DNA of 58,239 nt, the filler included, from Jimgerdemannia flammicorona (taxonomy: Eukaryota), in the NCBI GenBank assembly GCA_003990765.1. It is 3 parts of 3 records of this genome, joined end to end, with 100 filler letters (N's around TTAATTAATTAA, not from the genome) between each part and the next. Parts side by side here need not be neighbours in the genome. Positions count along the whole stretch, not along the records: positions 1 to 19,348 come from RBNJ01001960.1; 2 more parts are not named here. The stretch is one strand, 5' to 3'. Positions 1,466-46,822 of this stretch are shown piece by piece; within the stretch, counting starts at the first letter, position 1; every line of letters begins with the position of its first letter. The notes beneath the pieces are model-generated. The model saw only the letters and a program-made list of their open reading frames with translations. It searched no databases and was not told the origin of the DNA. Position numbers and translations under genes: made by a program.

Positions 1466-2995
1466 TGTTAAAAAAAAATTTATTTAATATAACAGTGACC
1501 CCAGAATGATGACATCAGTACAGGAGACAGTCTTTCCTTATAAGCTACCAGATCAGAGTACAAAAAGATTATACAGCATATGAGATAAGCAATAATGACC
1601 AACTGTGAGTCATTGTGACCACAGTACAAGTATCCTGAGAAATATAAAAGAAGGATCAAGGAACTGTAGTAGCAGCAACCAACAAGACCCACCAATTCCA
1701 AAATAGCTCAAAGACTTACTATAAATGAAATACCTGCTGCTCACTAAACCTCAAGATCAAGGAACTACCAAGGTATCTCAGTTGAAGAAAGGATGTTCCA
1801 AGACATCAGAAGAGCCATGAGGACCTGCTCAAGAAGGACTCCTAGTATCAACCTAGATATTAGTAACTCTTATCACTATATTCTCTACTACCATGAAATG
1901 GAAATAAGAATCACCATTGCTATCGAATACCTCCAAATATAGCAGGAGTATGAAATATGAAATCTCCTCTGCCAGAAGTTCCCACAGACCAGTTCTCAAG
2001 AGCTACAAGATACCACTTCCATGGATATATGTGAGATAAGAATGGCTAAGAAGATCCATCAGATCTTCAGGCATGCATCATGGTTGATCCCTAACTTGGA
2101 GTATGTTAGAGTCTCAGATTTCAGAGACCTGTCATCCCACTATATCAATATACTAGAAGCCAGAGTGGCTACAGAAGCCCAGTCTACTATCACTCTCAAT
2201 AGTGATGAAGTAGAAAACTTCTAGCATCCCATCCTTCAGGACAACCCAGACCAATTTCTGTAAGAATTGATCTCAGTATTCTAAGGCCCAAGCATCCAGA
2301 TTAGACCTCCCCAAGACCCCATATTTATTCACTATTTTGTAGAAGAGAACCTCATAGACTAGAGAGCTCCAGACCTCCTTCTTACTGCTGAATGTGATGA
2401 TGTCATCAGCAATGACATCATCCCACATGACATATATAAAATATATGATAAAGTATATGAAGTATACAAAACATATGATGATGACAAATTCACAGATCTC
2501 ATCTCCTTTGAAGATATCCTGACCTCTGATGATGAAGTCCTCATAGTCCTGAATATTCTGCTCTAAGTCTCTTGGTTACACTGAATAATACCAGTACTAG
2601 CATTCTGATGTGATATTAAATTATACCAGTATCCTGAACCTATACAACCATCAGTACTGACCCTGGAACTTAGTAGTTTTTCCTGTCCTGGTATTTTATT
2701 TTAGTTATTGGAATTTATATTTAGCTTTATATCTTAGCAACCATTGAATTATATTTTGTATAAATATCTCTCTTATTTTCTCTGAAATAAAGTCAGTTCT
2801 GGTTTACTTATATATACTTCCTTGTAAGCAATCTAAGAGATAACAAGATAGTTAAAGATAAGAAGTTTGAGGACTATAAGACCTTGGGAAGGCACTCTAA
2901 TAAGAACTTACTTATAACAAACTTGAGTTAGTTTAAGAGATATATCTTGAAGAGAATCCGATATATTTGAAGGACTCAGTGACCACTTTGTGACA
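1466..2995 (+). repeat. Putative 5' LTR of element A (right end firm, left end uncertain)
   Basis: Ends ...TGTGACA, followed by a PBS-like TGGTGCCC. The last ~185 bp match the inverted copy at 38609-38794. TATA (about 2759) and AATAAA (about 2786) are present. The start at tgtta (1466) is inferred. Confidence 0.6.
1506..2566 (+). pseudogene. Decayed accessory ORF of unknown function upstream of the TATA in the element A LTR
   Basis: Includes ORF 2021-2224 (IRMAKKIHQIFRHASWLIPNLEYVRVSDFRDLSSHYINIL) and an acidic tail. Resembles the LTR ORF of element B. Confidence 0.55.
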
Positions 2996-2998
2996 ACT

Positions 2999-3015
2999 TG
3001 GTGCCCATTGGCTGG
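2999..3015 (+). promoter_or_regulatory. Putative tRNA primer-binding site of element A
   Basis: TGGTGCCCATTGGCTGG lies 3 nt after the LTR end. The tRNA species is not identified. Confidence 0.6.
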
Positions 3016-5209
3016 TGATTCAAGATGAATCCCCCACTTTCAAGCTGAAAAATGAACAACCCCCACAATAACTACTCTGACTACAAGAGTCACCCCTGCA
3101 AGAATTCAAGATAAGATGGAAATGTGCCCCCCCATATTCTATAGATATACTACTGAAGAGTCAATCCTGACCTTCATTGAAGACTTTAAACAATTCACCA
3201 CTATATGAGCCCTTGGTGTAGATGCACAATTGGCCCTTCTACCAGTCAGCCTCAGAGGACCTGCCAGAGACAAGTTCAATATAGCCACTATTGCCAATAA
3301 TGATATAGCCAAACTTGCCAATATGAAGGCCTTCTTCAGAACAACATACTATACTGAAGAAATCAAGCAAGCTCTCAAGGATCAACTCAATACTATCTGC
3401 CAGAGACTTAGTGAAGATCCCAACTCATTCTATACCCAAACCTACTATCAGATTGTCTTGGCTGACTATGATGATGCCCTCAAGGAACAAATAGTGAATT
3501 TAACCTTCTTCAAAGGAGTTCACTCTGAAATTGCCCTAGCAATCTGGTCTACCCCAGCTGCACTGACCCTTGATCAGAAAGTAGTCTTTGCATAGAGATA
3601 TTAGACTTCCAGACACCCTGCTGAATACTCAATGGAGAAAATAACTAGCATCAAGATGGAGCCATTAAAGCCAACCAGTATTATACCTGCTACAGTTATA
3701 AACAGACAACCAACCCCACCTACCCCCAAGGCAGCCAAAGCTGACCCAGTGGAAGAACTCACCAAGTAGTTTACTGAGATGACTACATACCTTAGTGATG
3801 TTGTTAGAGAAGTCCAAAGTACCAACAGGAGACCAGTGCAGAGATTTGCAGCTACTATAAAAGAATATAATATCACATGATTCAGATGTGAAGAAGAAGG
3901 CCACTATGCAAAGAATTGCATAACTGAAATGAGATGCAAGGCCCAACCAAGTAATGCTAGCAGAACTAGAGAACAAACCAATGCAGTAGTCATCGAGGAG
4001 ATTGGTGACACTGATAATAAAGAATACTATGAGGAGCTTGAATTCTACTCTACTACTAAAGGTACCAGAACCCAGTTCAAGCCCTATGACAAGAAGAGCA
4101 ACAGCAAGCCAGTTGGAAGACCAAAAAAGATTCTAGCTATTACTATTCAAAGCAAGACTCAATCTGAGGAGATTGATCAAGACATAGAGTTAGATGAAGT
4201 TGTTTGCCAAATCATTAAAGGCACTACTCCAGTTTCAGGAGAAAGTGAAAGCAAGAAGAAACAGAAGCTGTACAAGACCAAGATCCACCAGTATGATATC
4301 TACAAGGACCTCAAAGAATAGAAGATCAATGCTACTTTTGGACAACTAGCTGAAGTCCCTGCCTTCAGACAGCAGTTGAGAGTAGGACTTGCAACTACTG
4401 CCAAGAATCAAGAGTACAAGATTATAGAAGCTCATAATGCACAGAAAAAATCTGAAAACTCAGATGAAGAATCTGAAGACTAGTGCAAGACATCAGCCTA
4501 TACTCTATGTTAGATTGAAGACTATATCTTTGATACCATCATTGATACCAGTGCTGGAGGATGCCTCATGCGCAAGAAGACAATTGACCACCTAGGTTGG
4601 GATATTGAAGAGTCCACCAAGATGATCTATATTACAGCAGATAGTATATGAGCTATTCTCCTTGACAAAATCCAAGAAGTCCCCATCAAGATAGGAGGAG
4701 CTATGATCTCAGTAGATGTGATTGTTATAAGTGCCACCAACTATGACATCCTTATTGGCAACTAATGGCTTCACAAGGCTAAGGCCATCATTGACCTCAA
4801 TGCCCAGAAGATGCAGATCAACTATAGAGGAAGAAAGGTACAAGTCTCTATCAATATCCACAAAGGAGTTCTACCAGACATAGAGAAAGGAGATGAAGAG
4901 AATACAGAGGTCTTTATGCACTCAATGAATAAGAATAAGAATAAGAACAAGACACCAAAGCTCACAGATAAGTAGTGGTACAACAAGATTATTGATAACT
5001 ATGTCCCTCAAGGAAGATGCCCCCATAGTACTAGGATGTACTGCTCTGAACACCTGAATGACTGCTGGTCCTGTATCAGTGAAGTTAGGAAAATCTACCA
5101 ACAGAAACATGAGCAAGAAGCTACTAAAGCAAAAAGAAAAGCTGAAGAAGATGACCAGCCCTCAGAGCTTCAAGCTAACAGTAATGATGAGGAGGAATAA
5201 GAATCAGAC

Positions 5210-5630
5210 ATCACCCTCAAGGTCAAGAAGTTTTACCCTGAAGCCAAGATCCCAGAATATAAGACTGAAGGAGCCATAGGAATGGACCTTGCCAGTATTC
5301 AAGATGCTACTCTCGAACCACAGACCACCACCCTACTTAGTACTGGAATTGGAGTCAAGCTGCCAGAAAACCATACTAGAATTATCAAAACCAGGAGCAG
5401 TCTGGCCAAAAGTGAAATCTCAGTTAAAGGAAGAGTAATTGACCCTGATTACACTGGTGAGATCTTCCTTATAGTCAGAAATCACAACCCCACCACCCTA
5501 TTCAAAGTTAAGAAGCATAACAGGATTGGCCAGATGCTGATCTATGAAATCAAGAAACCCAAGATCACTGAAACCATTGAACTCATCAAGACCAAGAGAG
5601 GAGAACAAGACTTTGGATCTACTGGAAGAG
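5210..5630 (+). pseudogene. dUTPase domain of element A, between protease and RT
   Basis: Motifs GAIGMDL, TRSSLA, GRVIDPDYTGEI, RIGQML, RGEQDFGSTG. Confidence 0.92.
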
Positions 5631-7576
5631 GAGCCAATATCACTACTAAGATTACTGAACTTAAGCATAAGAAAGACAAGGACCAGAACAAGCACACATA
5701 TACTATTGGAGAAAACTTTCCCCTGGAGGAACAACTTCTCAAGATCCTGCACCAGAATGAAGGGGTACTTGCTACAGACTTTAGAGATATCCACAATCAA
5801 GAACCCAAGTACTACCATGAAGTTGACACTAGTGATACCAAGCCCATCTACCAGAAAGCTAGACCCATATCACCTGCCTACAGAGAATGGCTGCAAGCAG
5901 AACTCAAGGAAATAGAAGAAGCTGAAATCATCAAGCAAGCTATCAGTCCCTGGGCTTTACCCATTGTCCTTACTCTGAAGAAAGAAAGCAAGTCTGGAGA
6001 GTTTGTATGAAGACTCTACATTGACTATAGAAAGCTCAATGCCATCACTAAGAAGGATAAACAGCTCTTGCCAAATATTCAAGAAATCCTTACCACTCTT
6101 GGAAGTGAAGCCAAATACTACACTACCCTGGATCTATTCTCAGGCTTCTATCAGATTGATCTCACTCAAGATGCTAGTGAGAAATCAGCCTTCATCACAC
6201 CTGATGCCATCTATATCTACCTGCAAATGCCATTTGGAATGTGCAATGCCCAAGTAAGTTTCCAGTAAATGATGAACAGAGTCTTCAGCAATGAGATTGG
6301 AAAATGGCTCTTTGTCTATATTGATGATATGATCATCTTCAGCAATACTGCATGGGAATATGTCAATCACATATAGCTAGTCCTCAAGAAGCTCAAGGAG
6401 CATGGCCTCTATATTAAGCCCAAGAAATACAAGTTTGCAGCTCAATAAATTGCCTATCTAGGACACCTCATCAATCAGACCAGAATCCACACAGACCCTA
6501 TGAAGATCAAGGCTGTTGCAGCCTACCCAAGATCCAGAACAACTACAGAAGTCCACACCTTCCTTGGACTGGCCAGCTACTACAGAAGATTCATCAAAGG
6601 ATACTCTAACATTGCAGTACCTATCTACAAGCTACTGAAGAAAGAAATCAAATTTGAATAGACCAAGGAGTACCAAGAAATCTTCAATGAACTCAAGACC
6701 AGGTTGACCTAAGTATCTATCCTCAGAAGACCAGATTGGAACCTAGAATTCATCCTGCAGACAGATACAAGTGCTATAGGACTTGAAGCAGTCCTAGCTC
6801 AGAAGAAAGATGGACATGAATATGTCATCTCCTATGTAAGCTGAGGTACCCATGGAGCAAAACAGAACTATGAGTCATATAAGCTTGAATGCTTAGCAGT
6901 AGTCTGGGCAGTAGATAAGTTCTACTACTACCTAGCTAGGAAATACTTTACTATTCAAACAGACTATTCTGCTCTTGCCTGGCTATTCCACACTCTGAAC
7001 TCCAAAGGAATATATGCCAGATGGATCTACAGGCTGCAAGAGTATAACTGTACTGTCAAGTACTGCTCAGAAAGAACCAATACCAATGTTAATGCACTCT
7101 CAAGAACACTCTGAAACACCCCCATCAAGATTACTCAACATGAATAAGGAGCTATACTATGGATTAATCAGCTACCTTGGGCAGCGGAAGATGCTCAACT
7201 ATCTTGAACCCTGGACAATTACCATTATCAACCAGACTTAGAAACAGTTTGAACTAGACAATACTATACTCAGAAAAGGTAGAAAGCTAGTAATACTTAA
7301 ATACAAGAAGTATCAAGTAATGAAGGAAGTATATGAGCAAGGATACCTAGGAGAAACTAACATATATGACAAGGTAAGAAAAACCATATGATGGCCCAAG
7401 ATAGAAGAAGACCTGCATCAATTTATCAAAGAGTATGACAAGTATCAAAAACAGAAATAAGATCAGTAAGACCAGGTACCCAGATCATTAATAATTGAGC
7501 CTATCCCCTTCCACCACATTGTAATGGATATCATTGAGCCACTATCAGTAATACTATCAGGAAACTACTATATTAT

Positions 7577-9587
7577 TATAAGAGGGTTGCTTTTTAGAAT
7601 AACCATTATGTAGTTCTGGAAGAGTTTTCTGGAAGTTCTGGATGTTCTGGAAGACCATTTTCTTATAGTCAAGATCAATTTCATATGGAGTACATTCTCT
7701 ATACTTATTGATTTTAAGTTTGGGTTGACATCTCAACCAAAGTCCTTTTTCAGACTAGTTCTAGATGTTTAGGATTTTCCATATTTCAGGAAGTTCAAGA
7801 AACTAAGACCAGCTTAGTTGAATTGGTGTATCGCTGCAGACAATACCCAATTAGGAAATTTTGTGATAGGGTTAGAAGTGGGACCTAATAGAGAGCAGAT
7901 TTACTTAAGAGTGGTTTGTGAGTTATTAAATAAGTTTATTTACTATTCATGATATTACTATACTAGGAGTAGTTGTATAAAGAGATATTGTGGGAAAGTG
8001 CTTAGGAGTTGTGTTCAGATTGTTTAAGTCTTTCAAGTCTGAGATTCTGAGGTCTGAGAGAGGGGGTATTTATACTAGTGAGGGGCTATCTAGACTATAC
8101 TAGATATGGATATAGCACTAAGTACCTTGCTGAGTCGAAATACAGTCACATCATACAAGGCTAATCTAACTATACTATGACTGCTAAGCTAATTATAGGT
8201 TTAGATACTATCTGGGTAGTCTTCAATGACATCACCATCAATGAAATCATCTCTGATGAAGTAGTTGTCTAGGAAGAGTGGTTTGCAGATTACTTCTTCT
8301 TGTTCGCTGAGATAATAATACATTGGAACTTCATCACTATCTTACAAGATAGCATCATCTGTCTTGTATGCTGGATAAGGTGTTGGGGGGTAAAGGAGTG
8401 GTGCATTATCTTTGCTTTCATCAGATTCACTGTCTGCATACCTTCTGTAGGTTACAGTACTATGAGTCATGGGGTTGTAGTATACTGGTAGCTGTGGTTC
8501 ATGTTGCTTGTACTTGGGTGGTGGAGTGGTTGGTTTGATCTCAAGAGTTGTCTGGAGGTACAGATTATGTTCTCCAGTCTCTTCATTATAGTTGAAAGTA
8601 ATCAGGGGTAAATATAAGTTAGTATTCATACTAGTGATTATTGTCCCAATAAGTCTCATATGTGGTTATAAACTATTGTAAGTTCATCAGCAAGATTGGT
8701 GGTATAATTAGTATTGGCAGAGATCCTTAGCTTGAGGTCATGTCAGTGTCAGAGGGATCATTATCTTCTGCTTCATCTTCATTGAACTAGATTATATCAT
8801 AGATATCCTTTATAGTGTATCTAATTTGGGACATTTGCAGGATGTGGTCATCGGGGTACAAGAAGGTTCTGTCTATAGTCTGGATGTACTCGAGGTACTT
8901 GTGGTTGAGTTCTTGTATCATATCATCAATTTGGCCATAGGACAGAGTAGCAACCATTTTACTGGTAGTAACTCAGAGGTAGGAATAAAGGTGCTATACT
9001 CATAAAAGAGTTCTCTATGTTTGTGGGCAATGAGCTTCTGGTGTTGAGACATCTGGATAATGTTCATATCATGGTGGTGTTCAACTATGTCTTCTAGGAG
9101 GTGGCCAATCTAGTAGTAGCTTGAGATTTGTCTGATTTAGTGGGCCTCATTAAGCATGTTTAGAGCATTCCATCAGGCTTTCATGAAGTAGAGGGGTGCT
9201 AGGCTATGAATATTCATGAGAGACAGAGGGGGTGTGGCTTGATTGACAATGGCATTCCAAATGTCAGTATAGATGTGATTGTATATCTCAGTGGTCATGT
9301 TTATATATGTTCAGAAGTTATGGTTGCTGTTTGTTTTGGTTTTCTGTTTGACATGTCTTAGTGCTCAGTATATATGCATTTGGTCCTAATTGGTAAGATT
9401 CTGTTTATATAAATCTTGTATTCTGTGACTTCATATTGACTCAGCTTTGTGTGCTGTGACTTTGGTTTGACTCAGCTTCATGATCGAGCAGATGATTTCC
9501 AGATTTATTTAGAGATCACATGTGATTTCAGTGGCTTGTTCGGAGGGTGATGTGTGATTTCTGTGGCTTAGAGGTTGTATGCTTACA
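7577..9587 (-). repeat. 3' LTR of element B (~2.0 kb)
   Basis: Direct repeat of 16106-18094, differing almost only by transitions, and preceded on the minus strand by a polypurine tract. Confidence 0.95.
8201..9298 (-). pseudogene. Accessory ORF (~365 codons, decayed) in U3 of the element B 3' LTR
   Basis: MTTEIYNHIYTDIWNAIVNQATPPLSL...RQISSYY.IG.LLED...KLIAHK..ELF...LSYGQIDDMIQEL..., then an acidic tail. Some stops are not shared with the 5' LTR copy (e.g. TAA at 8727 vs CAA). Confidence 0.7.
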
Positions 9588-10034
9588 ACTCTCCCCTTCT
9601 TAGCTTTCAACATCCTTATCAGGGCCTTCTAATTTGTTCTAGCATTGTTATACCATTTGAAAGGTCAAAAGTCCAGTAAAGTCCATTTTTCTCAGAAAGT
9701 GGCATGCTCATAATATAGTTGCCTAACATATTGGATTTATATGTTAAAGGGTCATGTGTTCAATGCTATATGCCAGAAGTGATTCTGACATCATTCACTA
9801 CTGGAGAATTTCCTTTAAGGAATCTTCTTAAATGTCTATGCCTAGTTTCCCACCAGTGGTATGGGGAGAATAGGCTGGCTTTCAGTTTTGCTATTTTTCT
9901 AGAGGATCAGTATTCTTTTGTCTTAGTTTGCTGAGTTCTTAATTTTGTTCATGATAATTATAATATTTGGAAGATAATATATAGTATGTATGGTGTCAGA
10001 GTATTCAGATTTTAATTGTTCAAGGAATCATGTT

Positions 10035-10185
10035 CCTGAACTAAGTCAGTAGCATTCTGGAGATTGGTCTTGGGTTTCCATGTTACATCATGGATCAGGT
10101 ATCCTTTCCATTTGACAAGGTACTCAGGGTGGTTCTTGTTGCCACATTTGTTGAGGATTTGTTCAACTTTGTATTCTTCTTGGTC
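10035..10185 (-). pseudogene. Integrase C-terminal chromodomain of element B
   Basis: EEYKVEQILNK...PEYLVKWKGYLIHDVTWKPKTNLQNA. Confidence 0.9.
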
Positions 10186-13100
10186 ATTAATAATGACAGG
10201 TGCAGGGGGTTCTGTGGCTTGGTTTGGAAATAGTTCATCATCATTGTCATTGTATCGCTTGAGACATTAGACATTAAAGACTAGATAAATCTTAATGGTG
10301 TCTGGTAGTACCAATTTGTAAGAAGTGGGAGAGACTTGTGTGATGACTTTGAATGGTCCAATGAACTTGCTGTTTAGCTTCGTAGATGGTCTGTGCTTCA
10401 GGTTGTCTACTCGATACCCTTGGATGTCTAGTAGAACTTTTTCTCCAATGTCAAAGGTTTCTTCTCAGCAGTGTTGGTTAACATACTGTGACTGTTGTTC
10501 TTAAGCTTACAATAAATTCTCAATTGCAATCTGGCTCAGATTACACATTTGGAGTAGGAATTCTTCAACAGCTTCGACTGTGGAGAGTTCTTCAGTGGTT
10601 CAGATAAGTGTCAAAGAGGTGTTTGGGTTTTGTCCAGTATTGGTGAAAAATGAGGTCATTCCTAGAGAGGCTTGCTTGCTGTTGTTATAGATAAACTTGA
10701 CTGTGGTCAAGTGTTCATACCAATCATCTTATCTGTAGGAAACATAGTTCCTTAGCATTTATTCTAGAGTTCAGTTCATTCTTTCAGTTTGGCCATCAGT
10801 TTCTGAGTGAAAGGCTGTGGATAGTGCAAGTTTTGTTCCAAGGTATGCATGGAGGGCTTTCCAAAAATGGCTGGTGAATTTCAGGTCTCGGTTGCTAATA
10901 ATGATCTTAGGAAGACCATGATAGCAGAAGATGTTGTCAAATAAGAGTATGCTATGTCTGGTGCTATTGCAGTAGTAGTAGTAGGTACAAAGTGGGCTTA
11001 TTTGCTGAGATAATCTACAAAGACAATAATTGTATCTTTTCCATTCTTGGTTCAGGGTAGTTGTACAATAAAGTCCATAGAGATTTGTTCCCAATTCATG
11101 GATGGTACTGGGATAGGGTGGAGTAAGCCAGGTTTTGCTAGTGTTGAGGACTTGTTTCATTGGTAGGCATCACAGGAAGTGATGTAGGTTTTGAGCTGAT
11201 CTGCTATGTAGGGCCAATAGAAGTTTCAGAAGATAACTTTATAGCATTTGTCAAATCCTAAATGTCCAGCTGTAGGGGCATTGTGACATTCGAATAGGAT
11301 AGTCCTTTGGAGGTCTTGGTTGTTTAGGATATATAGTCTGTCCTTGTAGTAGATGGCATTGTTCTTGAGTTGGTATTGATGGTACTGGGTATGCTTATCA
11401 GTATCATCACTATTCAGAATTTCTTGGAGTGCTTGAGCTTCCTTATCATCAGCATATGCTGCAATAATTTGTTCCATAATAGTGTTGGTAATCAAGGTGA
11501 GGGTTTGGATAACTTCTTCAATTAGTAGTCTGGATATTGTATCAGCAACAATGTTTTCTTTGCTAGGGCAATACTGGATTTCATAGTTAAAGTTAGTGAG
11601 GACTTTCATCCATCTGGCTTGCTTTCAAGAAAGGGTAGCCTGTGTCTTGATGTTGACTAATGACTTGTGGTCAGTCAATACAGTGAAGTGTGCTCCTTCT
11701 AGGTAAGGTTGTTATTTGATCAGAGTATCTACAATGGCTAGCATTTCCTTCTCATGGGTTGCATAGTTGATTTCAGCATCATTGAACTTGCAGAAATGAT
11801 AGGTGACTGGGTGTCTTTCTTGCATGAGTACTGCTCCAAGAGCTAGATCAGAGGCATCAGTTGTGACTTCATATGGTAGGGCAGAATTTGCTGCTTGAAG
11901 TACTGGAGTGGTTATCAAGGCATCCTTCAGTGCTTGAAAGGCTGTATCTTGTTCAGGTCTCCAATTTGCAAGATTGTTGAAGTCTTTCTCTTGTTTCATA
12001 GTCCAGGGCTGTTCTTCTTTCTTGCTGTGCTTGGTCATTTGGGTGAGAGCAGTGGTGATTTTGGCAAAGTTAGCAACAAATCATCTATAATAGTTTGCTA
12101 ATCTCAGGAATAACTGGAGGTCTTTCAGCTTTCATGGTCTGGGCCAATCCTTGATTGCAGAAATTTTGCAGGGGTCTACTTTGATTCTATTTGGTGTGAC
12201 AATGTATCTAAGGAATTGAATTTCCTTCAGTAGGAATTCACACTTGCTAAGTTTTACAAAGAGTTAGTTTTTTTGGAGTTTCAGTAGTACTAGTTCAAGG
12301 TACTCAAGATGTTTCTCCAGGGTTTTGCTAAAGACTAGGATGTCGTCAATATAGATAACAACAAATTTGTCCAAGTATGGGTGCAGGATAGTATTCATCA
12401 GTATCTGGAAGGTTGTAGGAGCATTAGTTAAGCCAAAAGGTATAACCAGGAATTCGAAATGTCCATAGTAGGTTCAGAAGGCTGTCTTGTAGATATCTTC
12501 TTCTTTCATAGTGATTTGCCAGTAACCATTTCGCAGATCAAAAGAGCTCATGAATTGTGGGTTGGTAAGCTTATCAAATATTTCATCAATTCTTGATAGT
12601 GGGTAACAGTTCTTGATGGTCTGTTCATTGAGGTCATGGTAATCAATACACATTCGTAAGTCTCCTCCTTTCTTGATAATAAAGAGTACCAGTGCACTAT
12701 AGGGTGACACACTGGATCTGATGAATCCTTGTTCTAGGAGTTTATCAATTTCTTTCTTAAGTACATCAATTTCTCTTAGAGACATATGGTAGATTGACTT
12801 GAATGCTGGTTTGGCATCAGGGATAGTTTTGATGGCATAGTCTACTGCTTGTTTAGGTGGTAGGCCTTTCGGAAGTTTCTTCAGAAATATGTCTCAGAAT
12901 TTCTGAAGTAGTGGTCTGACATAGCTGTCAACTTTGGAAAAATCTTCTTCAGAGTTCTTGGGTTCTTCTTTGGATGGATGGATGGAGATAGCAAAGAGAG
13001 GGCATTTCTTGGCCAATTTCTTAAGTTAGAGCTTGTTGATGTGGGTGATCTTTGGTCCAGAGTTATTAGAACTGAGTGGGTCCTTTTCACCTTACAGTTT

Positions 13101-13669
13101 GAAGTTGTGGCATCCTTTCTTGATAGTCAGAGAATGGTTTACCCAATCGATCATGGGGTTCTCTTGTTTCAGCCATGGGGTTCTAAGAATGATTTCATTA
13201 TCAGGAAGTGGTACAATTCAGTGGGTAACATATACTCAATAGTCACCAATTCAGAAGGGTAGATTGCAGACTTCTTTGCTAATAACATGTGAGGTTCCAT
13301 CAGCTGTGGCAACTGCTTGAGTTTGTTATACCAGAGAGGTGAAGACCTTAAGTCTGTTGGCTGTTTCTTTATTGATGAAGTTGCCTAAGGCACCACTGTC
13401 TATCATAATCTTGACAGGTGCTCAGTTGACAAAAGCTTTAAGTGTAAGCAGTTTGTCTGATCCAATAGTAGTGATTTCAGTTGTAGGAGCTTTCCTTCTG
13501 TTGGTTCTTCTTTGAGCCAGTTCATTGACACAAGAGAAGCAATCATCAATCATTCGAGAAGAGTACATTTCAATGCCATGGGGGCATCAGCCACTTGGTA
13601 CATATCTATCTTTGATTTTCTTATAGAATTGTTCTTCTTTATTCATAGTAGATTGGGCTGGGGCCTTGT

Positions 13670-14080
13670 TTGATGAACCAAATCCTTTGGATCCTCAGAT
13701 AGTGGGCAGTAGTTCAGGGACTTCCTTGACTATCAGAGTTGATTCAATTTTTTTGAATAGAATCTGGGTAATGCAGAACCCAATAGGAATCTTGAAGGGT
13801 GTCCAACTGTGGTTTTGGATGAGGACAATAATTTCACCTGTATAATCTTCATCAATGACTCCTCCTTCTACTGAGAGTCCTTTCAATGCTAGGCTGCTGT
13901 GACAGTATATTCTTCCAACATGTCCTTCAGGGATTTGGATACTGATTCCTGTATAGACTTGTTTGACTTCTCGGTTGGAAACTATAGCTTCTTCAGCTGC
14001 ATACAGATCATATCCAGCTGCTTTTTGACTTCCTTTGGTTGGGGCCTTAGCAGTTTGTCTTAACTTGACAAAGTCCAGTA
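13670..14080 (-). pseudogene. dUTPase domain of element B, between gag and protease
   Basis: KAPTKGSQKAAGYDLYA, HSSLALKGLSVEGGVIDEDYTGEI, ITQIL, GSKGFGSS. The protease (MIDSGALGNFI, about 13380-13410) lies downstream. Confidence 0.92.
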
Positions 14081-16087
14081 TTCTAGTGGTCAGGTTATTG
14101 AGGTGGTGCAGAGTGGTAACAGTTGCTCATATTACTGTTTGGGGTTTTCAGTTGGAGCAGGCACTGGCTATATGTCCTGTCTTTCAGTAATAGAAGCATG
14201 CTCTGCTTCTTCAAAGTTCATTTCTTTCACCTTCGGTGAGTTTCTTGAAGGTACTCAGCTGGGTGGGTTTATAATTTCTGGGTGTCCATGAGGTGGATGT
14301 GAAGGGAGCTTGGGATGCCTCATACTTGGGCTCTTCTTTCTTGATCCAAGTCTTTTTCTTGTTGTTAAATTGTCTTTGAGGCAGAATTGGTCCAGCTGTT
14401 AGGATTCACTTGACCATAGTCTTGATTCTTACTAGGCACCATTATTGGTAATCACAACTGACTGGGTGGCCTTGTTCACAGATTTTTCTCATAAGTCATT
14501 CAGGCAGTATATCAAATAAATGGTCTGCTCTTGTACCATTTTATGCTTCATCATTGGCAATATATCCTAAGCCAACAGTGTTCAGGAGTGACTTGAGTTT
14601 TATACAGAAGGTTTCAAATTCTTCTTTGCCATGTATATCAAATTTGAAGTTGCAGAGTTTTACTTGAGATTCAGCAATTATGGTTTCACTGCAGTATTGA
14701 GCAATCATGAGTTGTTTGAGTACAGGGGCTGCAGGTTGGGCTCCATATCCTGGGGCATTGTTTGCTATATTCTGAGTAACTACTGCAGGTTGGGTATCCC
14801 ATGTGAGGGTTTTTTCAGGAAGGGTTTGCTACCATTCTTCAGCAGGTCCTTAGAAGAATGTAACAACTTTGCAGACATAGGCTGTAGTGGTAGCAAAGAG
14901 TTGTTCCAGAGTATGGTCTTGATTGTTTGTCAGAATGTGATCAGCCACTCACTCATTGGTCCATTGATTGGCTTCGAAATTGGTGTCAACTACACTAATA
15001 AAGCTTTGGACTTCTTGTGCAGTACCATTGAAGGTAGGTAGGCTCAGATTTTTGGTAGGTTGGGTCTGTTCGGCTAAGGCAGTAATGGTTGCTGCTATTA
15101 TGGCTACTTGGACTATGAGGTCTAGAATCTGTTGGTTTGCTATATTGTTTACTGGAGATAGTTGAACTACTGGTAGTAGTGTTACTAGTACTACTTGAGG
15201 TACTGGTACAGAGTGTGAGGGTATTCTTTGAGTCTGTGTAAGTTGCTGGAGTAGTAGTTGTGGGTCTGGAGTAAGGGCTTAATAGATAGCTATCTGTTGC
15301 TATGTAGGTGTGTTCTGTCCTGATGGAAGTGCATCTCCTTTGGTGGTGTATCTGGGATTGAATTCACTGAGATACTCCTCCTCTTCTTTGGTTTGGTCTC
15401 CATGTAATTGGGTTTGCTCAGCATCAAAGTAGACAGAATCAGTGGTATATCTGATTTCAGATGGGCTTAATTAAAAGTCAAGTTCAGGTTCAGTATTGGT
15501 TTCAGATTCAGGTAGGGCTGTAGCAGGGCCTGCTTCTGGTTCAGAGTCAGATAGTTGATGAAGGGTTTCTCTTGCTTCTTTTTTAAGAATATGGCAGGCC
15601 TTGCTGTTCTGGAATTGGTAGTATAATGCGGTCTTGGTCCTGGTGTGGTAAAAGTTGGTAGAGTTGAGCCACTTAGCTACAGAGACTTGGGCTTTGTAAG
15701 GAACTAAGGCTAGAAAGACTGCTGCTGGTTATCCTAGGTCACTCAGATTTGTGGAGCTGACAAAACTCTTGTTGAGAAGAGTAAAGAAGGCTTCTATAAG
15801 ACCTTCTTCATCTTGACTTGCTGGGTGTAGAGCAAGGAGTTTGGTAAATAGGGTTTTGCCTATTTGCTGATTTAACTGGAGTATTTCTTTCTTCGAATGA
15901 AGTTTGTCCCACTTGTTGTAGATATAGAGGTCAAATTGTCCTTGTATATCAGGTTCAATTCTCTTCAGATTGTCAGATGGTTCAGGATAAATTCTAGTTC
16001 AGAGGTTGGGCTTTATACCAACTTGTAGGAATTCGTAGAGGGGTTTGTAGTGGGGTGAGAAAGTGTCTTGAAGTGGAATTGGATTGT

Positions 16088-16102
16088 AAACCACTGCTAC
16101 TA
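16088..16102 (-). promoter_or_regulatory. Putative initiator tRNA-Met PBS of element B
   Basis: TAGTAGCAGTGGTTT 3 nt after the 5' LTR, consistent with a G-to-A decayed TGGTAGCAG. Confidence 0.6.
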
Positions 16103-16105
16103 AGT

Positions 16106-18094
16106 TATAAGAGAGTTGCTTTTTAGAGTAACTGTTACATAGTTCTAGAAGGGTTTTCTGGAAGTTCTGGATGTTCTGGAAGACCATTTTCTTATGGTCA
16201 AGATCAATTTCATATGGAGTATATCCTCTATACTTATTGATTTCAAGTTTGAGTTAACATCTCAACCAAAGTCCTTTTTTGGACTAGTTCTGAATATTCA
16301 GGATTTTCCATATTTCAGAAAGTTCAAGAAACTAAGACCAGCTTAGTTGAATTGGCATATCACTGCAGACAATATTCAATTAGGAAATTTCGTAACAGGG
16401 AACCTAACAGGGAGCAGATTTACTTAAGAGTAGTTTGTAGATTATTAAATAGATTTATTCACTATTCATGATATTGCTATACTAGGAGTAGTTGTGTAAA
16501 GGGATATTGTAGGGAAGTGCTCAGGAGTTGTGTTCAGATTGTTCAAGTCTTTCAAGTCTGAGATTCTGAGGTCTGAGAGAGGGGGTATTTATACTAGTGA
16601 GGGGCTATCTGGACTTTGCTAGATATGGATATAGTACTAAGTGCCTTGCTGAGTTGGAATGCAGTCACATCGTATAAGGCTAATCTAACTATACTATGAC
16701 TGCTAAGCTAATTATAGGTTTAGACACTATCTGGGTAGTCTTTGATGACATCACTATCAATGACATCATCTCTGATGAAGTAGTCATCTAGAAAGAGTGG
16801 TTCGTAGATTACTTCTCCTTGTTCACTGAGATAATAATATATTGGAACTTCATCACTATCCCACAAGATAGCATTATATGTCTCATATGCTGAATAAGAT
16901 ATTGGGGGGCAAAGGAGTGGTGCATCATCTTTGCTTTCATCAGATTTGCTGTCTGCATACCTTCTGTAGATTACAGTACTATGAGTTATGGGGTTGTAGT
17001 ATGCTGGTGGCTGTGGTTCATATCACTCATACTCAGGTGGTGGAGTGGTTGGTTTGATCTCGAGGGTTGTCTGGAGGTACAGGTTGTGTTCTCCAGTCTC
17101 TTCATTATAGTTGAAGTAATCGAGAGTGAATATAGATTAGTATTCATACCAGTGGTCATTGTCCCAATAAGTCTCATATATGGTTATGAACTGTTGTAAG
17201 TTCATTGGCAAGGTTGGCAGTGTGATTAGTGTTGGCAGGGATCCTTGGCTTGAGGTCATGTCAGTGTCAGAGGGATCATTATCTTCTGCTTCAACTGGAT
17301 TATATTGTAGATATCCTTCATAGTATATCCAATTTGGAGCATTTGTAGGATGTGGTCATTGGAGTGCAGGAAGGTTCTGTCTGTGGTCTGGACATACTCA
17401 AGGTACTTGTGGTTGAGTTCTTGTATCATATTGTTGATTTGGCCATAGGACAGAATAGTAACCATTTCACTGGTAGTAACTTGGAGGTAGGAAATAAAGG
17501 TGCTGTACTTGTAAAAGAGTTTTCTGTATTTGTGAGCAATGAGCTTCTAGTGTTGAGACATCTAGGTAATATCCATGTCATGGTGGTATTTGATCATGTC
17601 TTCTAGGAGGCAGCCAATCTGGTAGTAGCTTGAGATTTGTCTAATTTGGTGGGCCTTGTTAAGCATATTCAGGGCATTCCATCAGGCTTCCACGAAGTAG
17701 AGGGGTGCTAGGCTATAGATATTCATGAGAGGCAGAGGGGGTGTGGCTCGATTGACAATAGCATTCCAAATGTCAGCATAAATATAGTTATAGATCTCAG
17801 TGGTCATGTTTGTATATATTCAGAAGTTGTAGTTACTGTTTGTTTTGGTTTTCTGTTCGACATATCTTAGTGCTCAGTATATATATATTTGGTCCTGATT
17901 GGTAAGATTCCATTTATATAAATCTTGTATTCCATGACTTTGTATTGACTCAGCTTTGTGCACTGTGACTTTGGTTTGACTCAGCTTTGTGATTGAGCAG
18001 GTGATTTCCAGATTTGTTTGGAGGTTGTGTGATTTCAGTAGCTTGTTTAGAGGGTGACATGTGATTTCTGTGGCTTGGAGGTTGTGCACTTACA
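16106..18094 (-). repeat. 5' LTR of element B (~2.0 kb)
   Basis: Direct repeat of 7577-9587, flanked by the TSD ATTAT. Confidence 0.95.
16720..17807 (-). pseudogene. Second copy of the U3 accessory ORF (5' LTR of element B)
   Basis: Same reading frame as 8201-9298; includes ORF fragments 17256-17465 and 16986-17177. Confidence 0.7.
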
Positions 18095-18138
18095 ATTATA
18101 GTTATTGTAGACCTCTTTACCAAATGGATAGAGGGAGG
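18095..18138 (+). mobile_element. Continuation of element A integrase after element B
   Basis: GNYYI|IVIVDLFTKWIEG is restored when element B and one TSD are removed. Confidence 0.85.
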
Positions 18139-18242
18139 TAGTGCTCCGAACGAGTCAATTCGAATCAAATCCGGATTCGATTCGTCACATGACGGTTTGA
18201 TTCGAATCTCAAATCCGAAGCCATCCGGATCCACTCGGATTT

Positions 18243-18586
18243 AATCCGAATCGCCCCATCCGAATCGCCCCATCCGAATCACCCATCCGAACCACCCCAA
18301 TCCGAATCACTCAATCTGAATCACTCAATCCGAATCGCCCCATCCGAATCGCCCCATCCGAATCACCCATCCGAATCACCCATCCGAATCACCCATCCGA
18401 ACCACTCCAATCCGAACCACTCAATCCAAACCACTCAATCCGAATCACTTAATCCGAATCACTCAATCCGAATCACTCAATTCGAATCCTCCAATTCGAA
18501 TCCACCAATTCAAATCCTCCAATTCGAATCCTTCAATCCGAATCCTCATCCGAATCCTTCAACCGAATCCTCCAATCCAAATCCTC
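18243..18586 (+). repeat. Subterminal tandem 13-14 bp repeats (core ATCCGAATC) of the hAT
   Basis: More than 20 units such as ccgaatcgccccat, ccgaatcacccat and ccgaatcactcaat; typical of hAT transposase-binding arrays. Confidence 0.85.
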
Positions 18587-18681
18587 CACATGACTCATAT
18601 GCCGGATGCGTCCACAACACAACACACACACACGCATACACACACATGCATACACATGCACACGCAAACATGCAAACACAC

Positions 18682-19328
18682 ATGTCGACAGATCAGTCTT
18701 CAACAGTTCACAGTACTGATGATGCTTCAAGTCAAACATCCCTGATAGTTCCACACCTTCCATGCAATCCTCGCTCCAAAATCTGGCAACATTGTACTAA
18801 GATAGGAGATGATGTTGTTTGTAATTATTGCAGGTAAAAAATTAAGACATACCTATTGACACTTTGTCTGACACACACATGATATTGTTTGACACACCCA
18901 TGATATTGTTTCATCCACCCCCATGAACTGCACCAGCCAGAAGTTCAAAATGCTTGGGGGTACGACTTCGAACATGAATCGACACATAAAAGACAAGCAC
19001 TCTGACAAAATCAAAAAGAACACGGAGACAAATAAAATCGACATCCAAGCTGTGGTGGGTACGTTTATCTGATTGCCTGACCATTTCTGTACCAACAATG
19101 CCATTTAATCAAAAATTTTAGCCATACTCTTTGGCAGAATTTCGAAATTGGCTCGTTCGCTGGATTGTGTGCACAGACCAGCCATTCACAACCATCGAGA
19201 GTGATCAATTGCACAGCATCTTTGGCCTCCTCAAGCATGATTTATATTTGCCAAGTGCCGATACTATTCGCAAAGATGTCCTGGAGGCCTATAGGAAGGA
19301 GCACGACAATCTCCGCCAGATACTTCAG
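18682..19328 (+). CDS. hAT transposase N-terminus (3 exons, partial): BED zinc finger plus start of the following domain
   Basis: RSKIWQHCTK...VVCNYC | GTTSNMNRHIKDKH | LVRWIVCTDQPFTTIES...LPSADTIRKDV, with GT-AG introns at about 18833-18937 and 19055-19121. Confidence 0.8.
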
Positions 19329-19348
19329 GTAAAATAAGGGCAGCACCA

Positions 19349-19448
19349 NNNNNNNNNNNNNNNNNNNNNNNNNNNNNNNNNNNNNNNNNNNNTTAATTAA
19401 TTAANNNNNNNNNNNNNNNNNNNNNNNNNNNNNNNNNNNNNNNNNNNN
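19349..19448. other. Assembly gap with artificial six-frame-stop linker
   Basis: N44-TTAATTAATTAA-N44. Confidence 0.97.
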
Positions 19449-19492: not shown

Positions 19493-22400
19493 GTCATGTG
19501 GACTTTCCTTTATTACTGCAATCTATATTAACAATACAATATTACTCCCAACCCTTCACCCAATACTCCTTGGATCCCCCTCACTCTCTTCTACCTCTTT
19601 CTATTGGAAGACAACCCAGTCACCAACTACACAGATCTGCTCTCCACTTTTCTAGTACATACACTTCACCAATTCCTGTCATCTACTCCCACCAGGCCCT
19701 CACCCCCACCACCAGCTATTCAAAATATCCAATAGCAGCCATTCTCACTATGCCACTCTATCTTTAATCCCTATCTGCCAACCCTCCTCAAATACATATA
19801 CATAACCAGTGCCTGGCTAGCCTAACCCAAATTGCCAAAGCCCAGCCCAGGGTCAGCCATTTGTCCCCCACCCTCCCCACCAACCTGCAATAGAGCTCTC
19901 CCCATCTCCCCCCTTCCCCTCCCACCAGGGCCTGTAGCCCCAACCTATCTACAATATAATATCAAAAAACCCCTATAATATCATACTTACCAAGCCAATG
20001 TTCAGGCATTTGAATCACTCCCCCTTCCTGTCCAACATCTAAGCATTCCTCATACTCAAACCAGCCATCTGCTACCAAGTATCTAGACTGAAAGTTCAAC
20101 ATCACATTCCACCTTAGAAACCACCACCACACTACCTAGAACTTGGGGGGGGAGCCACTATATCACTTGCTTGCTCTAAGGCCAAAGCCCATTCCAGTTC
20201 CACCCCTCACTGATCCCCACTCTCTGCCATGCAGTAGACCACAGGTCTCCCCCTAGGCCCTGCAAGCACTCCATACTATCGCCAAGCCAAAAGTTCTCTA
20301 TCAAAGTACTGCCCAATAGAAGCCTGTCCTATCTCTACATCTGTGGTCCCCAATCACTCTTGCCTTCATCACTCTGCCATCGAAGACCAATCCTCCAAGC
20401 ACCATCCACCACCCCCTACCAAAAGCTCTTATATTGTATCCTCTCACTCCTATCCAGGGTCACCATTACAAGCAGATTGCCAGATGCACTATGGGGGGAA
20501 TACTGGGCCTCCCACACCCTTTGTATGAGTGGTACCCACTCCTGTCTCCTTAACTCACTCACTCTCTTCAGCCACTATGCTTATAGGAAATGAAGGTATT
20601 TGGAGAAGTCCACCAAGCCCAGTCCTCCACCATCCATCAGTAGAGTTAGTACCTCCTATCTTATCTGACTTTGCCACTCAGCCCAGATCCATGCCCTCAC
20701 TATCTTCAGAAGGTACCTGACCACCCATGCTGGGAAATCCAGATGGTACTCCACATATCACAGCTTTAGCAGCCAATATATATTCAGCACCATCACCCTT
20801 CCTACCAAGGAAATGTGTCAACTGCCCCACCATAAAAGTATATTCTCCATACTAGAAGTTGCTATTTCTACCAAGTGCAAGAAAGGAGGGATCCATATAC
20901 AGAGAAGTAGATCTCCAGATAGTGAACAGGATCTCTTATCAGCACTATCTTCCCAATTACTTTGCCACCAACTATTCTGCTATCTAACACTATAGTCTCA
21001 TATTTATGCCAATTGAGTCTAGCACCAGAACCTCTCTCATACCATTCCACAGTTCACTGTAATTTCTCCACATCTGCCAATAAACCCAATCCAACTACCA
21101 TATCATCTGCAAAGGCCCCCACCTTCCAATTAATCCTCAGAATATCTAAACCCCTAATTTGACACCTGATCCTATCTACTAGGGGCTCTAAGGAAAGGGC
21201 ATATAAGATGGGTGACAAAGGATCCCTCTGTAGTACCTCATGACTCAGAAAGAAAGTGGTACCTCTGTGTCTATTGACCACCAAGGCTGCTTGACTGTCC
21301 TCCAAAAGACTGATTAATAATCTCCAGAACTCTGGCGAAACACCCACCTGCTTCAGCACTCCTTCCAGCCAGATCCTCCACACTCTATCATATGTATGCC
21401 TTCTTCTGATCTAGAAACACCAGTTGTCCATCAACCCTGGTAGTCCAAGTCCCTTCAATCACTCCATGGACCCAGGCCATCCCATCTTGAATCAACTGAC
21501 CACTTACAAAACCTCATTGTTCAACTCCCAGCACTTGCTGAGTGACCCCCTGCAGCCTAGCTACTAAAACCTTCATAACCAGCTTGCAGTCCATATCAAG
21601 GAGCATGATTGGATGCCAGTTCTTCCAATCTTCCCTTCTTCCCTTATCTTTAAAGAGCAAAGAAACCAGCTCTAGCCACTGGCCCCCAATCTAAGTTCCA
21701 GACTAAAGAACCTCATCATACATCCCTGTCAACTCCTCCAACACTATCTCCACCCTGGCCATCTTTTTCCAAAAATCCCAGGGAAGCCCATCCTCTCCCA
21801 ATGCCATCTCCTTACTTGTCAAAGCTAGGACCTTGCAAACCTCCTCCCCTCTCACTCAGTCCCTCAGAGCCCCTAGACCCATTGCTGGGTTTGGATGCCA
21901 ACCCTCTAACTGCTGTTCAATATCCAAGGCATCATCACCCCCTTCTTCCTCACTCCATAGGCCCTCTCAGCAGGACCTAAGCAATCTCAGAATTGCTGGA
22001 GTCTCCACCACTATCTCCCCATCTTCATCCAAGACACCATCCTACTACTGCTTAGTTCTTTACACTTGTAGTATCTGCAATAAAAACTGAGTGGGTTGCT
22101 CCCCTTTCTCCAATCCTTGCCACCTCAACCTTGTCACTATCTCCTTCAATTTAGCCTCCTCCTCCAGTCATAGCACCTCCTTAAATTCCCTGACTTCTAT
22201 CTGAATTCTTGCAATGTACCAGTCTACCACCTCTCTGTCTTTCAGCTCTCCTGCCCATCTCTCCAGGAGTATCACCAGCCTCTGTGAGGCCCAGTGTACT
22301 CTCTGCCGCTGCTGAGTACTCCTCTCTTTCCCTGTCTCTCTCCAATATCTCTGAGCACTTAATTTCAGCCTTTTTTAATGATCTCCTATTGTCAGACCCC

Positions 22401-28376: not shown

Positions 28377-29001
28377 TGAAGTATACTGTAGATGGTTTTA
28401 TGCCCATTAAGATTTTTATGTAATTATGTGTTTCAGCTTTGCATAAATGCGAAACTTGCTACTCTGGCTGAGCCTTGAGCGAAATACCAGCAGCATTCGT
28501 GTGAAGGTACGAGCCGAAGTCGTTTTGTCGACGAGGCCACCTAAAACCAAACCAATGTCATTCACAAGCCTTCTCGAAAGCGCTGAATTGATCCCAAATT
28601 GCGGTCCTCTATCACGAGACAAGAATTTGTTAATAGCACTGGACTGGCAGTTTGTCTAATGTGATTGGCATCGAGGGTAAAGCATCCCCGAAAAGAGTGA
28701 TGTGTACTTTTACAGAAATTTGTTGCGAGCATTTTACGGGGGTTTATGCAATGAGCCAAGATTTCGGAAGGTTTCTTTAAAATGGGATTTCTTGTAGATC
28801 TTCCGGAAGGGCTCAATTCATGGATTTGGAGCATGATAGCATGTCCAAGTGGGGAGGCCTGTGACCATGGACGATCGCGATAGGCTCGAGATTCGCCCGA
28901 AATGGGGCTGTCATGTGATCCCGCCGAACTCTAATCACGTCGAATTGAGGACACATTTGTTCCTTCCACTCCCTCCCCTACTACATTTCACGTCCGGCAT
29001 C

Positions 29002-37898: not shown

Positions 37899-38608
37899 AT
37901 TTCAGTTTCGTTATTATTATTTATTTATTTCTTTTTATTTCTACGTTTCTTAAATCCCTAGCGTAGTTATTGAAATAAAATGTTATCTCCTGACAATTCA
38001 CCGTTCCCTAGTGACTTTTGAACTCGACTTATAGAGTGACATCTGGGAAAATCATCATGACATGACGAAATTTATCATGTGATGCTTGTTACGCGTCTTT
38101 TTTTTTTTCTAAGTGAAGCGCCATCTCCTTCCCTCCTTTCCTCTACCACTTGTACTAGGTATACTTGTCTACTAACTCTACTGTTGCTTACCTTGCAGAA
38201 AGATGATAGCATGATAAATTATCATTGCATGAGATTCATGTTCCTTTTCTCATCACGTGTTATGTCGAACTTCCTGCCATAACAATTTATTTAGGTGTTC
38301 ATGTGCAGGCAAAGTAAGCTACCCATTACAACAATCTTCTCTAAACTTAATGCAGGAAGTAAAATTCATTTTATTTCTTTCCTTTCATAGGGACCCTTTT
38401 TCAATGGTGAACAATTTACATATGCTATCTTTTCAAGAGGTTACAATTCGCACTTGTACCCTGTCACAGGTAGGCCCTATGTATGGAAGCCCACCACCCA
38501 TCCCCCTACTCTCACAATCAAAGATATAGTGATGACTATTTCTGGCTTAGATAGAGGGTGGGTCTGTGTATACCTGGAGACTCAAAAAGTGTTATGAAAT
38601 ATATCTGT

Positions 38609-38794
38609 TGTCATGTAGTGGTCACTGAGTCCTTCAAATACACCAGATTCTCTTTAAGGTATATCTCTTAGACTAACTCAAGTTATTATAAGCAAGTTCT
38701 TATTGGAGTGCCTTCCCAAGGTCTTATAGTCCTCAAACTTCTTATCTTTAACTGTCTTGTTATCTCTTAGATTGCTTGCAAGGAAGTGTGTATA
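38609..38794 (-). mobile_element. LTR end of an element-A-family copy in inverse orientation, truncated by the gap
   Basis: The reverse complement matches about 2810-2995, with transition differences. Confidence 0.9.

Positions 38795-39220: not shown

Positions 39221-39271
<51 letters not shown>

Positions 39272-46787: not shown

Positions 46788-46822
<35 letters not shown>

Follow-up and report, generated by a model that had tools for sequence, protein, structure and literature searches.

A putative accessory protein gene within the long terminal repeats of a dUTPase-bearing Ty3/gypsy chromovirus of Jimgerdemannia flammicorona

Can an open reading frame (ORF) that lies wholly within the long terminal repeats (LTRs) of a fungal retrotransposon be the remnant of a genuine protein gene, and do other elements carry the same gene? 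This question is raised by a window of 58,239 nucleotides, i.e. the whole stretch of DNA analysed here, from the fungus Jimgerdemannia flammicorona (assembly GCA_003990765.1). An earlier note, made from the sequence by eye, had proposed that three gypsy elements of the window, here called A, B, and C, share one accessory gene family. Our analysis centred on element B, a chromovirus on the minus strand. On balance, we find it somewhat more probable than the contrary that its LTRs carry a genuine accessory gene, coding for an unknown acidic protein and wrecked by mutation in the present copies.

Element B was delimited by self-BLAST as a pair of direct repeats (7576-9588 versus 16105-18095; 87.7% identity over 2014 nt). 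After refinement of the ends, its parts are the following:

7577 to 9587, minus strand: 3' LTR of element B, 2011 bp, TGTAAG...CTTATA, defined by self-BLAST, its ends, the polypurine tract, and the target-site duplication
16106 to 18094, minus strand: 5' LTR of element B, 1989 bp, with the same ends and 88.5% identical to the 3' LTR
9588 to 9601, minus strand: polypurine tract AAGAAGGGGAGAG(T), which abuts the 3' LTR
7572 to 7576, no strand: target-site duplication ATAAT, 5 bp, with its second copy on the other flank at 18095-18099
9588 to 16105, minus strand: degenerate internal region with gag, dUTPase, protease (PR), reverse transcriptase (RT), ribonuclease H (RNase H), integrase (IN; H2C2, SH3-like), and chromodomain, assigned by Pfam on read-through frames

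The Pfam matches comprise RVP_2, RVT_1, RT_RNaseH, Integrase_H2C2, SH3_Tf2-1, and Chromo (E=4e-11), with the dUTPase ahead of PR. Having an LTR pair, a target-site duplication, and a polypurine tract, as well as the Pol order PR-RT-RNase H-IN with a chromodomain at the C-terminus, element B is a Ty3/gypsy chromovirus bearing a dUTPase. The empty-site joint 7571|18095, with 5 ambiguous letters, was found in contigs of three of four public runs, and the LTR end of B (9538 onwards) occurs with foreign flanks, i.e. in other copies, in further contigs of public runs. Therefore, B is a discrete multi-copy mobile element nested in another repeat. The empty-site contigs also show that this host sequence is itself a repeat, which occurs elsewhere without B, and soil-metagenome runs contain thousands of fragments that are 80-99% like element B. 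A primer-binding site (PBS) of the tRNA type is not obvious right after the 5' LTR (16080-16105, minus strand), where the first TGG follows 12 nt in (ACTTAGTAGCAGTGGTTTAC); Rfam and tRNA scans of the whole window gave no match.

Each LTR of element B contains an ORF of about 363 codons, which starts 290 nt into the LTR and ends 127 nt before the motif TATAAATA:

8201 to 9298, minus strand: B accessory ORF, 3' LTR copy, ATG 9298-9296, TAA 8203-8201, with 9 stops and two 1-nt indels, namely a deletion near 8986 and an insertion near 8597; located by tblastn of P0003 and P0004
16720 to 17807, minus strand: B accessory ORF, 5' LTR copy, ATG 17807-17805, TAA 16722-16720, with 5 stops and a 10-nt deletion near 17294; located in the same way

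P0003 and P0004 are open database proteins. The former (128 aa), which a word-indexed search retrieved when given the 5' copy as an X-read-through, is 80% identical to B codons 1-128 and has the same start, MTTEIYN. The latter (247 aa), found by HMMER among 1.84 billion representatives, is 61% identical from codon 115 to the same C-terminus (...NYFIRDDVIDDDLIAEYPDSI) and ends, as does the ORF of the window, in ...YPDSI. Read in a single frame, the two copies contain 13 (9298->8201) and 11 (17807->16720) internal stops. Alignment of both proteins onto the window by tblastn gave a corrected path: in the 5' LTR it runs 17807->17295, across the 10-nt deletion, and 17310->16723; in the 3' LTR it runs 9298->8987, across the 1-nt deletion, 8969->8595, across the 1-nt insertion, and 8614->8204. 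The earlier note had described an ORF of about 365 codons in both LTRs; its start, stop, and length were right, but the ORF is not open as one frame, and from about 8785 to 8597 the frame chosen was wrong, tblastn with P0003 and P0004 having replaced the single-frame reading of 8785-8597 by the +1 frame. Both copies in the window are dead. Upstream extension is barred by an in-frame TGA 5 codons before the ATG, which has an A at -3.

The way in which these copies died can be read from the LTRs. In the alignment of the two B LTRs, 223 of 230 substitutions are transitions; by context, 76 differences are of the CpG type and 93 of the CpA/TpG type, and 7-8 CpG are left per LTR. Judged by this pattern, the repeats have been heavily hypermutated from C to T, in the manner of methylation or of RIP (repeat-induced point mutation); hence stops in B arise from CAA, CAG, CGA, and TGG codons. 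A similar excess of transitions (194 of 215 differences) is seen in the LTR pair of element C, 38897-40250 versus 55383-56676. With respect to P0003, C>T/G>A changes alone explain 43 of 46 residue mismatches and 6/6 stops in that part, and because mismatches and stops can be explained in this manner, the gene copies of B were presumably intact, or close to it, when they inserted; both would later have been wrecked by three indels and by C>T/G>A hypermutation in CpG and CpA contexts. That stops are partly private to one copy, as noted before, was borne out: only two positions are common, namely codon 42 (TGA; R in P0003) and the stop in 'YEY*' (Q in P0004), and each could arise by C>T, the first as CGA>TGA at R42 and the second from a Q codon. 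This distribution supports the view that the stops are mostly private damage after insertion.

The comparison with P0004 suggests, in addition, that the frame was maintained while the protein diverged. The two indels between P0004 and B are both in frame, and in a neutral-drift simulation a 247-codon ORF was still open at 61% identity in 3 of 1000 cases. Conservation is blocky, the motifs DYFNYNE.TGEHNLYLQTT, FITTYETYW, and NYFIRDD standing beside variable linkers. A likeness to helical proteins expanded in Glomeromycota/Mucoromycota, which had been suggested earlier, was not supported: HMMER over the 1.84 billion representatives gave 4 matches at E<=1e-3, i.e. P0003, P0004, and two spurious repeat proteins, and the word-indexed searches gave 1 match each. 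The spurious proteins, P0005 and P0006, were rejected, as both are internally repetitive and P0006 also matches 17 unrelated Pfam families. Likewise rejected was a match of Pfam DUF5338 to the 5' LTR read-through of B (E=1e-5, 25.4-26 bits versus a cut-off of 25.9), which covers residues read out of frame and does not appear in the intact P0004.

Element A offers a second case. Spacers of the form N44-TTAATTAATTAA-N44 at 19349-19448 and 38795-38894 divide the window into pieces of 19348, 19346, and 19345 bases, and adjacency across them is artificial; elements A and B are in piece 1 and element C is in piece 3, which need not be neighbours. The relevant features of A are:

1730 to 2566, plus strand: accessory ORF of element A, 278 codons plus stop, with ATA as first codon here (M in P0008), 10-12 stops, and 5 open relatives
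1606 to 1649, plus strand: TGAGTCA (1606-1612) and TATAAAA (1643-1649), upstream of the ORF and in the same order as in B
2759 to 3011, plus strand: the motifs TATAAATA (2759-2766) and AATAAA (2786-2791), the LTR end at about 2996, and the PBS-like TGGTGCCCATTGG (2999-3011)

This ORF had been placed at 1506-2566; it is real, to judge by its five open relatives, and its end is indeed 2566, but its start is 1730. Read as noted earlier, the frame holds 10-12 stops in about 330 codons, versus 14 in one antisense frame. The relatives (P0007-P0011; 161-271 aa) are 56-70% identical to the copy in the window and 73-80% to each other; of the 45 mismatches to P0007, C>T/G>A changes only can account for 35, whereas the reverse-direction control gave 3. 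The layout is that of B, with TGAGTCA, TATA, ORF, TATAAATA, AATAAA, LTR end, and PBS in succession. A second A-type LTR end at 38607-38794 (minus strand), which is cut by the edge of piece 2, is 91% identical to 2809-2997 (plus strand) and ends at the same base; for the LTR start, the piece containing no 3' LTR of A, the sole hint is a jump in G+C at about 1490. Taken together, these observations support a genuine ORF in element A at a position equivalent to that of the B ORF. The A-type proteins are also orphans, as Pfam, PDB sequences, and the Atlas gave no accepted match; ATG5_HBR, which appeared on 2 of 6 A-type members (E=0.028), was rejected.

Three further observations concern element A. 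Its PBS-like TGGTGCCCATTGG is clean and lies 3 nt past the LTR. The dUTPase is placed differently in the two elements, the order being PR-dUTPase-RT in A (5201-6007, plus strand) and dUTPase-PR-RT in B (13698-14126, minus strand), and the two domains are 38% identical. To the right of B (18096-19348), where the integrase core of A should continue, the sequence is C-rich instead, includes a tandem array of 14-nt units (18241-18549), and gave no Pfam match; element A seems to have been disrupted a second time here.

Among the alternatives, the one that survives best holds that A, B, and C carry one homologous accessory family, which would be older than the split of these gypsy lineages and diverged almost beyond recognition. 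A and B are indeed alike in position, in flanking motif order, and in architecture, each having a helical N-terminal part and an acidic, hydrophobic tail. By means of hhalign, one collinear match was obtained between A 20-137 and B 7-122 (113 columns, 19% identity, E=P=0.03), with a probability of 1.65%. It is in the same register as an alignment of A and B made earlier by eye and includes the motifs noted then, but it is weak. In Smith-Waterman comparisons, the score of P0003 versus P0007 was reached by 8/2000 shuffles and that of P0003 versus P0008 by 67/2000, the range for A-B pairs being 8/2000 to 504/2000. A hidden Markov model (HMM) of A ranks P0003 18th of 3003 proteins; the HMM of B, on the other hand, gives no signal on A proteins, with P0007-P0009 at ranks 479 to 1088 of 3003. 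An accessory gene at 19% identity is not absurd, given that the RT-RNase H region itself is only 31.5% identical between A and B. However, tblastn at E<=10 and HMM scans of the six-frame window gave no accepted cross-match among A, B, and C. Homology of the A and B ORFs is thus suggestive, and on these sequence comparisons we lean moderately against it.

For element C, the case is poorer. The candidate is:

40291 to 40860, minus strand: candidate frame of element C, 190 codons with 5 stops, in the stretch from the C-terminus of IN to the 3' LTR

This frame (40860->40291) has 5 stops versus 9-14 in the other five frames, but it is internal and not in the LTR, which contains no ORF over 90 codons. 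The best non-self match of the B-HMM in the window does fall in it, at E=1.5; the A-HMM gave no match. Smith-Waterman comparison with the intact P0003, P0004, P0007, and P0008 was not significant (P0003 was reached by 193/2000 shuffles, P0004 by 404/2000), and the earlier by-eye alignment of B and C was supported neither by tblastn nor by HMM or Smith-Waterman. Acidic tails, as claimed before, are present in A, B, and C. Finally, the dUTPase is located differently in the two elements A and B, and therefore these lineages acquire genes independently. Of the proposed single gene family there remains a borderline link between A and B, while C shows no significant similarity; that all three elements share one family appears unlikely to us, although it keeps a real share of the probability. 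We prefer to regard the ORF of A as a different orphan protein in the same LTR slot, carried by a distant dUTPase-gypsy lineage.

The next question is where within the LTR the B ORF lies. In sense orientation along the 3' LTR, with positions counted one higher than from the refined start 9587, the order is TGAGTCA at 115 and 146 in a 31-nt repeat, TATATAAA at 178, ATG at 291, stop at 1388, TATAAATA at 1515, AATAAA at 1649, and the LTR end at about 2012. In window coordinates, the signals are:

9404 to 9474, minus strand: promoter-like block of putative role upstream of the B ORF, with TGAGTCA at 9474-9468 and 9443-9437 in a 31-nt direct repeat, followed by TATATAAA at 9411-9404
8067 to 8074, minus strand: TATAAATA, presumed by position only to be the genomic-RNA promoter, 127 nt past the ORF stop; also at 16586-16593
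7935 to 7940, minus strand: AATAAA, a polyadenylation-like signal by motif; also at 16454-16459

A TATA box downstream of the B ORF had been noted and is found as TATAAATA at 8074-8067. The upstream block is fully kept in the 5' LTR (17983-17946, ~17920). TGAGTCA, a site of the AP-1/Gcn4 type, with a TATA-like box 32-63 nt later, precedes both the B and the A ORFs (9437-9474, 17946-17983, 1606-1612); note that the 58-kb window has 17 TGASTCA sites in all. On the usual reading, the B ORF would lie in U3 and the downstream TATAAATA would be the genomic promoter, a placement that follows the positions of TATA and AATAAA and not a mapped transcription start. With regard to a U3 ORF of the Sag type, known from mouse mammary tumour virus (MMTV), the whole B ORF is found within the repeat, upstream of TATAAATA and AATAAA, with the U3/R border taken from motif positions and not from RNA mapping.

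The same motifs can be read in another way, in which the block at LTR 113-185 is the promoter of the genomic RNA and the ORF lies in a very long R or 5' leader, as a first cistron ('ORF0' upstream of gag) present at both RNA ends. This arrangement would make use of the TATA-like box and the two AP-1/Gcn4-type sites 110-180 nt upstream of the ATG, which are kept in both B LTRs and in element A. It leaves unexplained, however, a second, perfect TATAAATA downstream of the B ORF, which with an AATAAA 127 nt later forms the usual U3/R arrangement and which recurs together with AATAAA in element A, the pair being 20 nt apart there. Moreover, R would measure about 1.4 kb here, which exceeds by far every R region known to us. 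We consider this reading quite unlikely and retain the placement of the ORF in U3. A higher depth over R-U5 than over the ORF in two possible-RNA runs was discarded, as mapping at 80% likeness favours the less mutated part.

It must also be considered that the ORF could be open by mere chance. In a sense strand rich in A and C and poor in T, long stop-poor frames arise without coding, and gene callers would have made 'hypothetical proteins' of less-mutated LTR copies. Over the whole LTR there are 26-33 stops in the best sense frame versus 35-38 in the best antisense frame, and DeRIP of both B copies also opens antisense frames of 112-135 codons. Yet at its level of divergence P0004 still has the frame, with its indels in frame, and the same stop, an outcome that few of the neutral simulations reach; conservation comes in blocks; and five relatives, 20-27% different from one another, have the A-type ORF open. 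In the searches run, no antisense frame turned up a database relative, although antisense frames were never used as queries. We therefore judge a chance frame to be very unlikely and adhere to a genuine gene.

Several points nevertheless weigh against the latter interpretation. The two stops common to both B copies may possibly have been present already at insertion. The database relatives, two for B and five for A, are fragments of short contigs (about 1 kb for those of B) with unknown context, and as protein databases take in open frames only, their openness is partly a matter of ascertainment. Scans of metagenome and viral contigs for DNA of the relatives yielded no confirmed locus. The upstream 'promoter' of B has been read from motifs, in DNA that is mutated and rich in A and T. 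None of the listed public runs is recorded as RNA, and the four that were covered consist of Logan contigs, which cannot show starts, strand, or expression levels. Nothing links the B protein to any function: P0003 and P0004 gave no Pfam match at E<=1, PDB sequence profiles contain no relative of the A or B proteins (best E 0.17-0.2, rejected), an Atlas search with P0004 and P0008 gave no feature match reaching 0.9, and the AF2 (AlphaFold 2) models of the B protein are of low confidence.

As improbable as a chance frame is the view that the B ORF represents a transduced fragment of a lineage-specific host gene, a passenger in the LTR of no use to the element, since in spite of an orphan status that fits a young, lineage-restricted host gene, and of the dUTPase, which exemplifies the capture of cellular genes by these elements (see also PMC2864245), there is no homologue outside transposable elements in 1.84 billion representatives (HMMER) or 5.8 billion proteins (word-indexed search), the frame is maintained at 61% identity, and a second lineage (A) carries another ORF at the corresponding place, accompanied by the same signals.

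What kind of protein would such a gene encode? In the B protein, an N-terminal half of about 170 aa, predicted to be helical, precedes a C-terminal half of about 190 aa that is rich in Pro and Tyr and strongly acidic; the last 190 aa have a net charge of -32 and include 20 Pro and 18 Tyr. AF2 proposed 8 helices in residues 1-177 (predicted local distance difference test, pLDDT, of 48) and left the C-terminal half, which is probably disordered, essentially unmodelled (pLDDT 32); the Atlas models of P0004 and P0008 are poor (pLDDT 0.39 and 0.35). Both types of protein end in a hydrophobic-acidic stretch, ...LFIDNYFIRDDVIDDDLIAEYPDSI in B and ...ADLISFEDI...ILNFLL in A. Readings of the B tail as a late domain, a PPxY motif, or an AIM (Atg8-interacting motif) were dropped, being non-canonical by eye.

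Two groups of retroviral genes invite comparison. The sag gene of MMTV ('LTR ORF') is a complete ORF of about 320 codons inside U3 and hence occurs twice per provirus; to our knowledge, an ORF housed wholly in an LTR is found in MMTV alone. The B ORF is like sag in lying entirely inside the LTR. In contrast, Sag is a type II membrane glycoprotein and superantigen of a vertebrate betaretrovirus, whereas B and A are fungal Ty3/gypsy elements, and in the B and A proteins neither a hydrophobic stretch of transmembrane grade (maximum 19-residue Kyte-Doolittle mean 0.57 / 0.97) nor a Pfam match was found. The Tas (Bel1) protein of foamy viruses, of about 300 aa, switches on its own LTR and has a C-terminal acidic activation domain, and Nef of human and simian immunodeficiency viruses is encoded by a 3' accessory gene that reaches into U3. 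These genes overlap U3 only partly and are read from spliced or internal-promoter RNAs. With Tas, the B protein would share a folded helical part and an acidic tail with a hydrophobic-acidic end; its composition fits an acidic activation domain, as far as composition goes, and Tas thus may serve as a model for a guess at function. No sequence similarity of B or A to Tas or Nef was found in Pfam or PDB sequences.

The B gene would be transcribed from a promoter of its own, located within the initial 290 nt of each LTR, and end at the LTR poly(A) signal, each LTR being a self-contained gene; alternatively, it would be read from a subgenomic RNA reaching the 3' LTR. The protein might regulate the element, either as an activator whose acidic tail recruits the transcription machinery or as a factor against host silencing. 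Because the gene adjoins the promoter of the element, a self-regulatory role is the most economical guess, although we consider it more likely wrong than right.

Extra ORFs are also known from plant Ogre/Tat-type elements, and those of fungal and plant LTR retrotransposons are, as far as is known, internal, lying between LTR and gag or between pol and LTR. With the 'add. ORF' of fungal elements, with brtn, and with the Ogre/Tat ORFs, the B ORF has in common that it is an orphan beyond gag-pol; it differs in lying wholly within the repeat. The orphan 'add. ORF' is named in the legend of Figure 3 of Novikova et al. 2010 (PMC2864245) and brtn is an orphan ORF of BcGypsy1 from Botrytis (bioRxiv 10.1101/2021.04.13.439636). 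According to PMC2864245, the position of the dUTPase varies in Postia placenta elements, where it is at the N-terminus of Pol or between PR and RT. The dUTPase chromoviruses of Basidiomycota treated there (PosPlaTy3 of Postia placenta; Phanerochaete elements) are Ty3/gypsy elements that combine a chromodomain with a dUTPase at a variable place, comparable to the differing dUTPase positions of A and B; the passages covered mention no LTR ORF for them. The term 'LTR ORF' is in use for MMTV. In the literature covered, which includes parts of PMC2864245, PMC3248453, and bioRxiv 10.1101/2021.04.13.439636, no LTR-embedded ORF of a fungal element was found; subscription journals were mostly outside this scope, as were Figure 3 ('add. 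ORF') and the supplement of PMC2864245.

The remainder of the window contains repeats and host genes. A strongly C-rich repeat family (GC skew -0.3 to -0.5) with 1.6-kb direct repeats is nested in element C (43627-45221, 46813-48400, 49795-52293), and a relative with about 64% identity is located in piece 2 (19963-25000); the family gave weak RT matches only. Piece 2 also contains a flavin reductase-like ORF (27166-27816, plus strand) and a long, multi-exon host gene (28840-37402, plus strand) with a protein-kinase-like domain, AAA_16, GAF, and a response-regulator receiver, and with short gaps between its ORFs; by its domains, this gene looks like a fungal one of the hybrid histidine-kinase type. 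The host genes of piece 2, and likewise the chromoviruses with a dUTPase, speak for a fungal source.

Carried to its full extent, the picture would be one of a group of fungal chromoviruses with a dUTPase whose LTRs each form a self-contained protein-coding gene, in which an AP-1/Gcn4-type enhancer and a TATA box drive an orphan ORF up to the LTR poly(A) site. Solo LTRs would stay coding once the element is lost, and a Tas-like, acidic-tailed factor would activate the neighbouring genomic promoter or blunt silencing by methylation or RIP-like hypermutation; between A and B, the gene would have been replaced or have diverged beyond recognition while the slot was kept. We regard this picture as a whole as unlikely. 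Accessory genes mark the step from simple retrotransposons to complex retroviruses. If the B gene is expressed, it would explain the LTR length of 1.5-2 kb, it would make solo LTRs potential protein genes, and it would open a way to study how elements of fungi cope with transcription and with the defence of the genome. Further, orphan proteins that look unrelated but occupy one and the same LTR slot in two lineages would show that new genes have landed there more than once.

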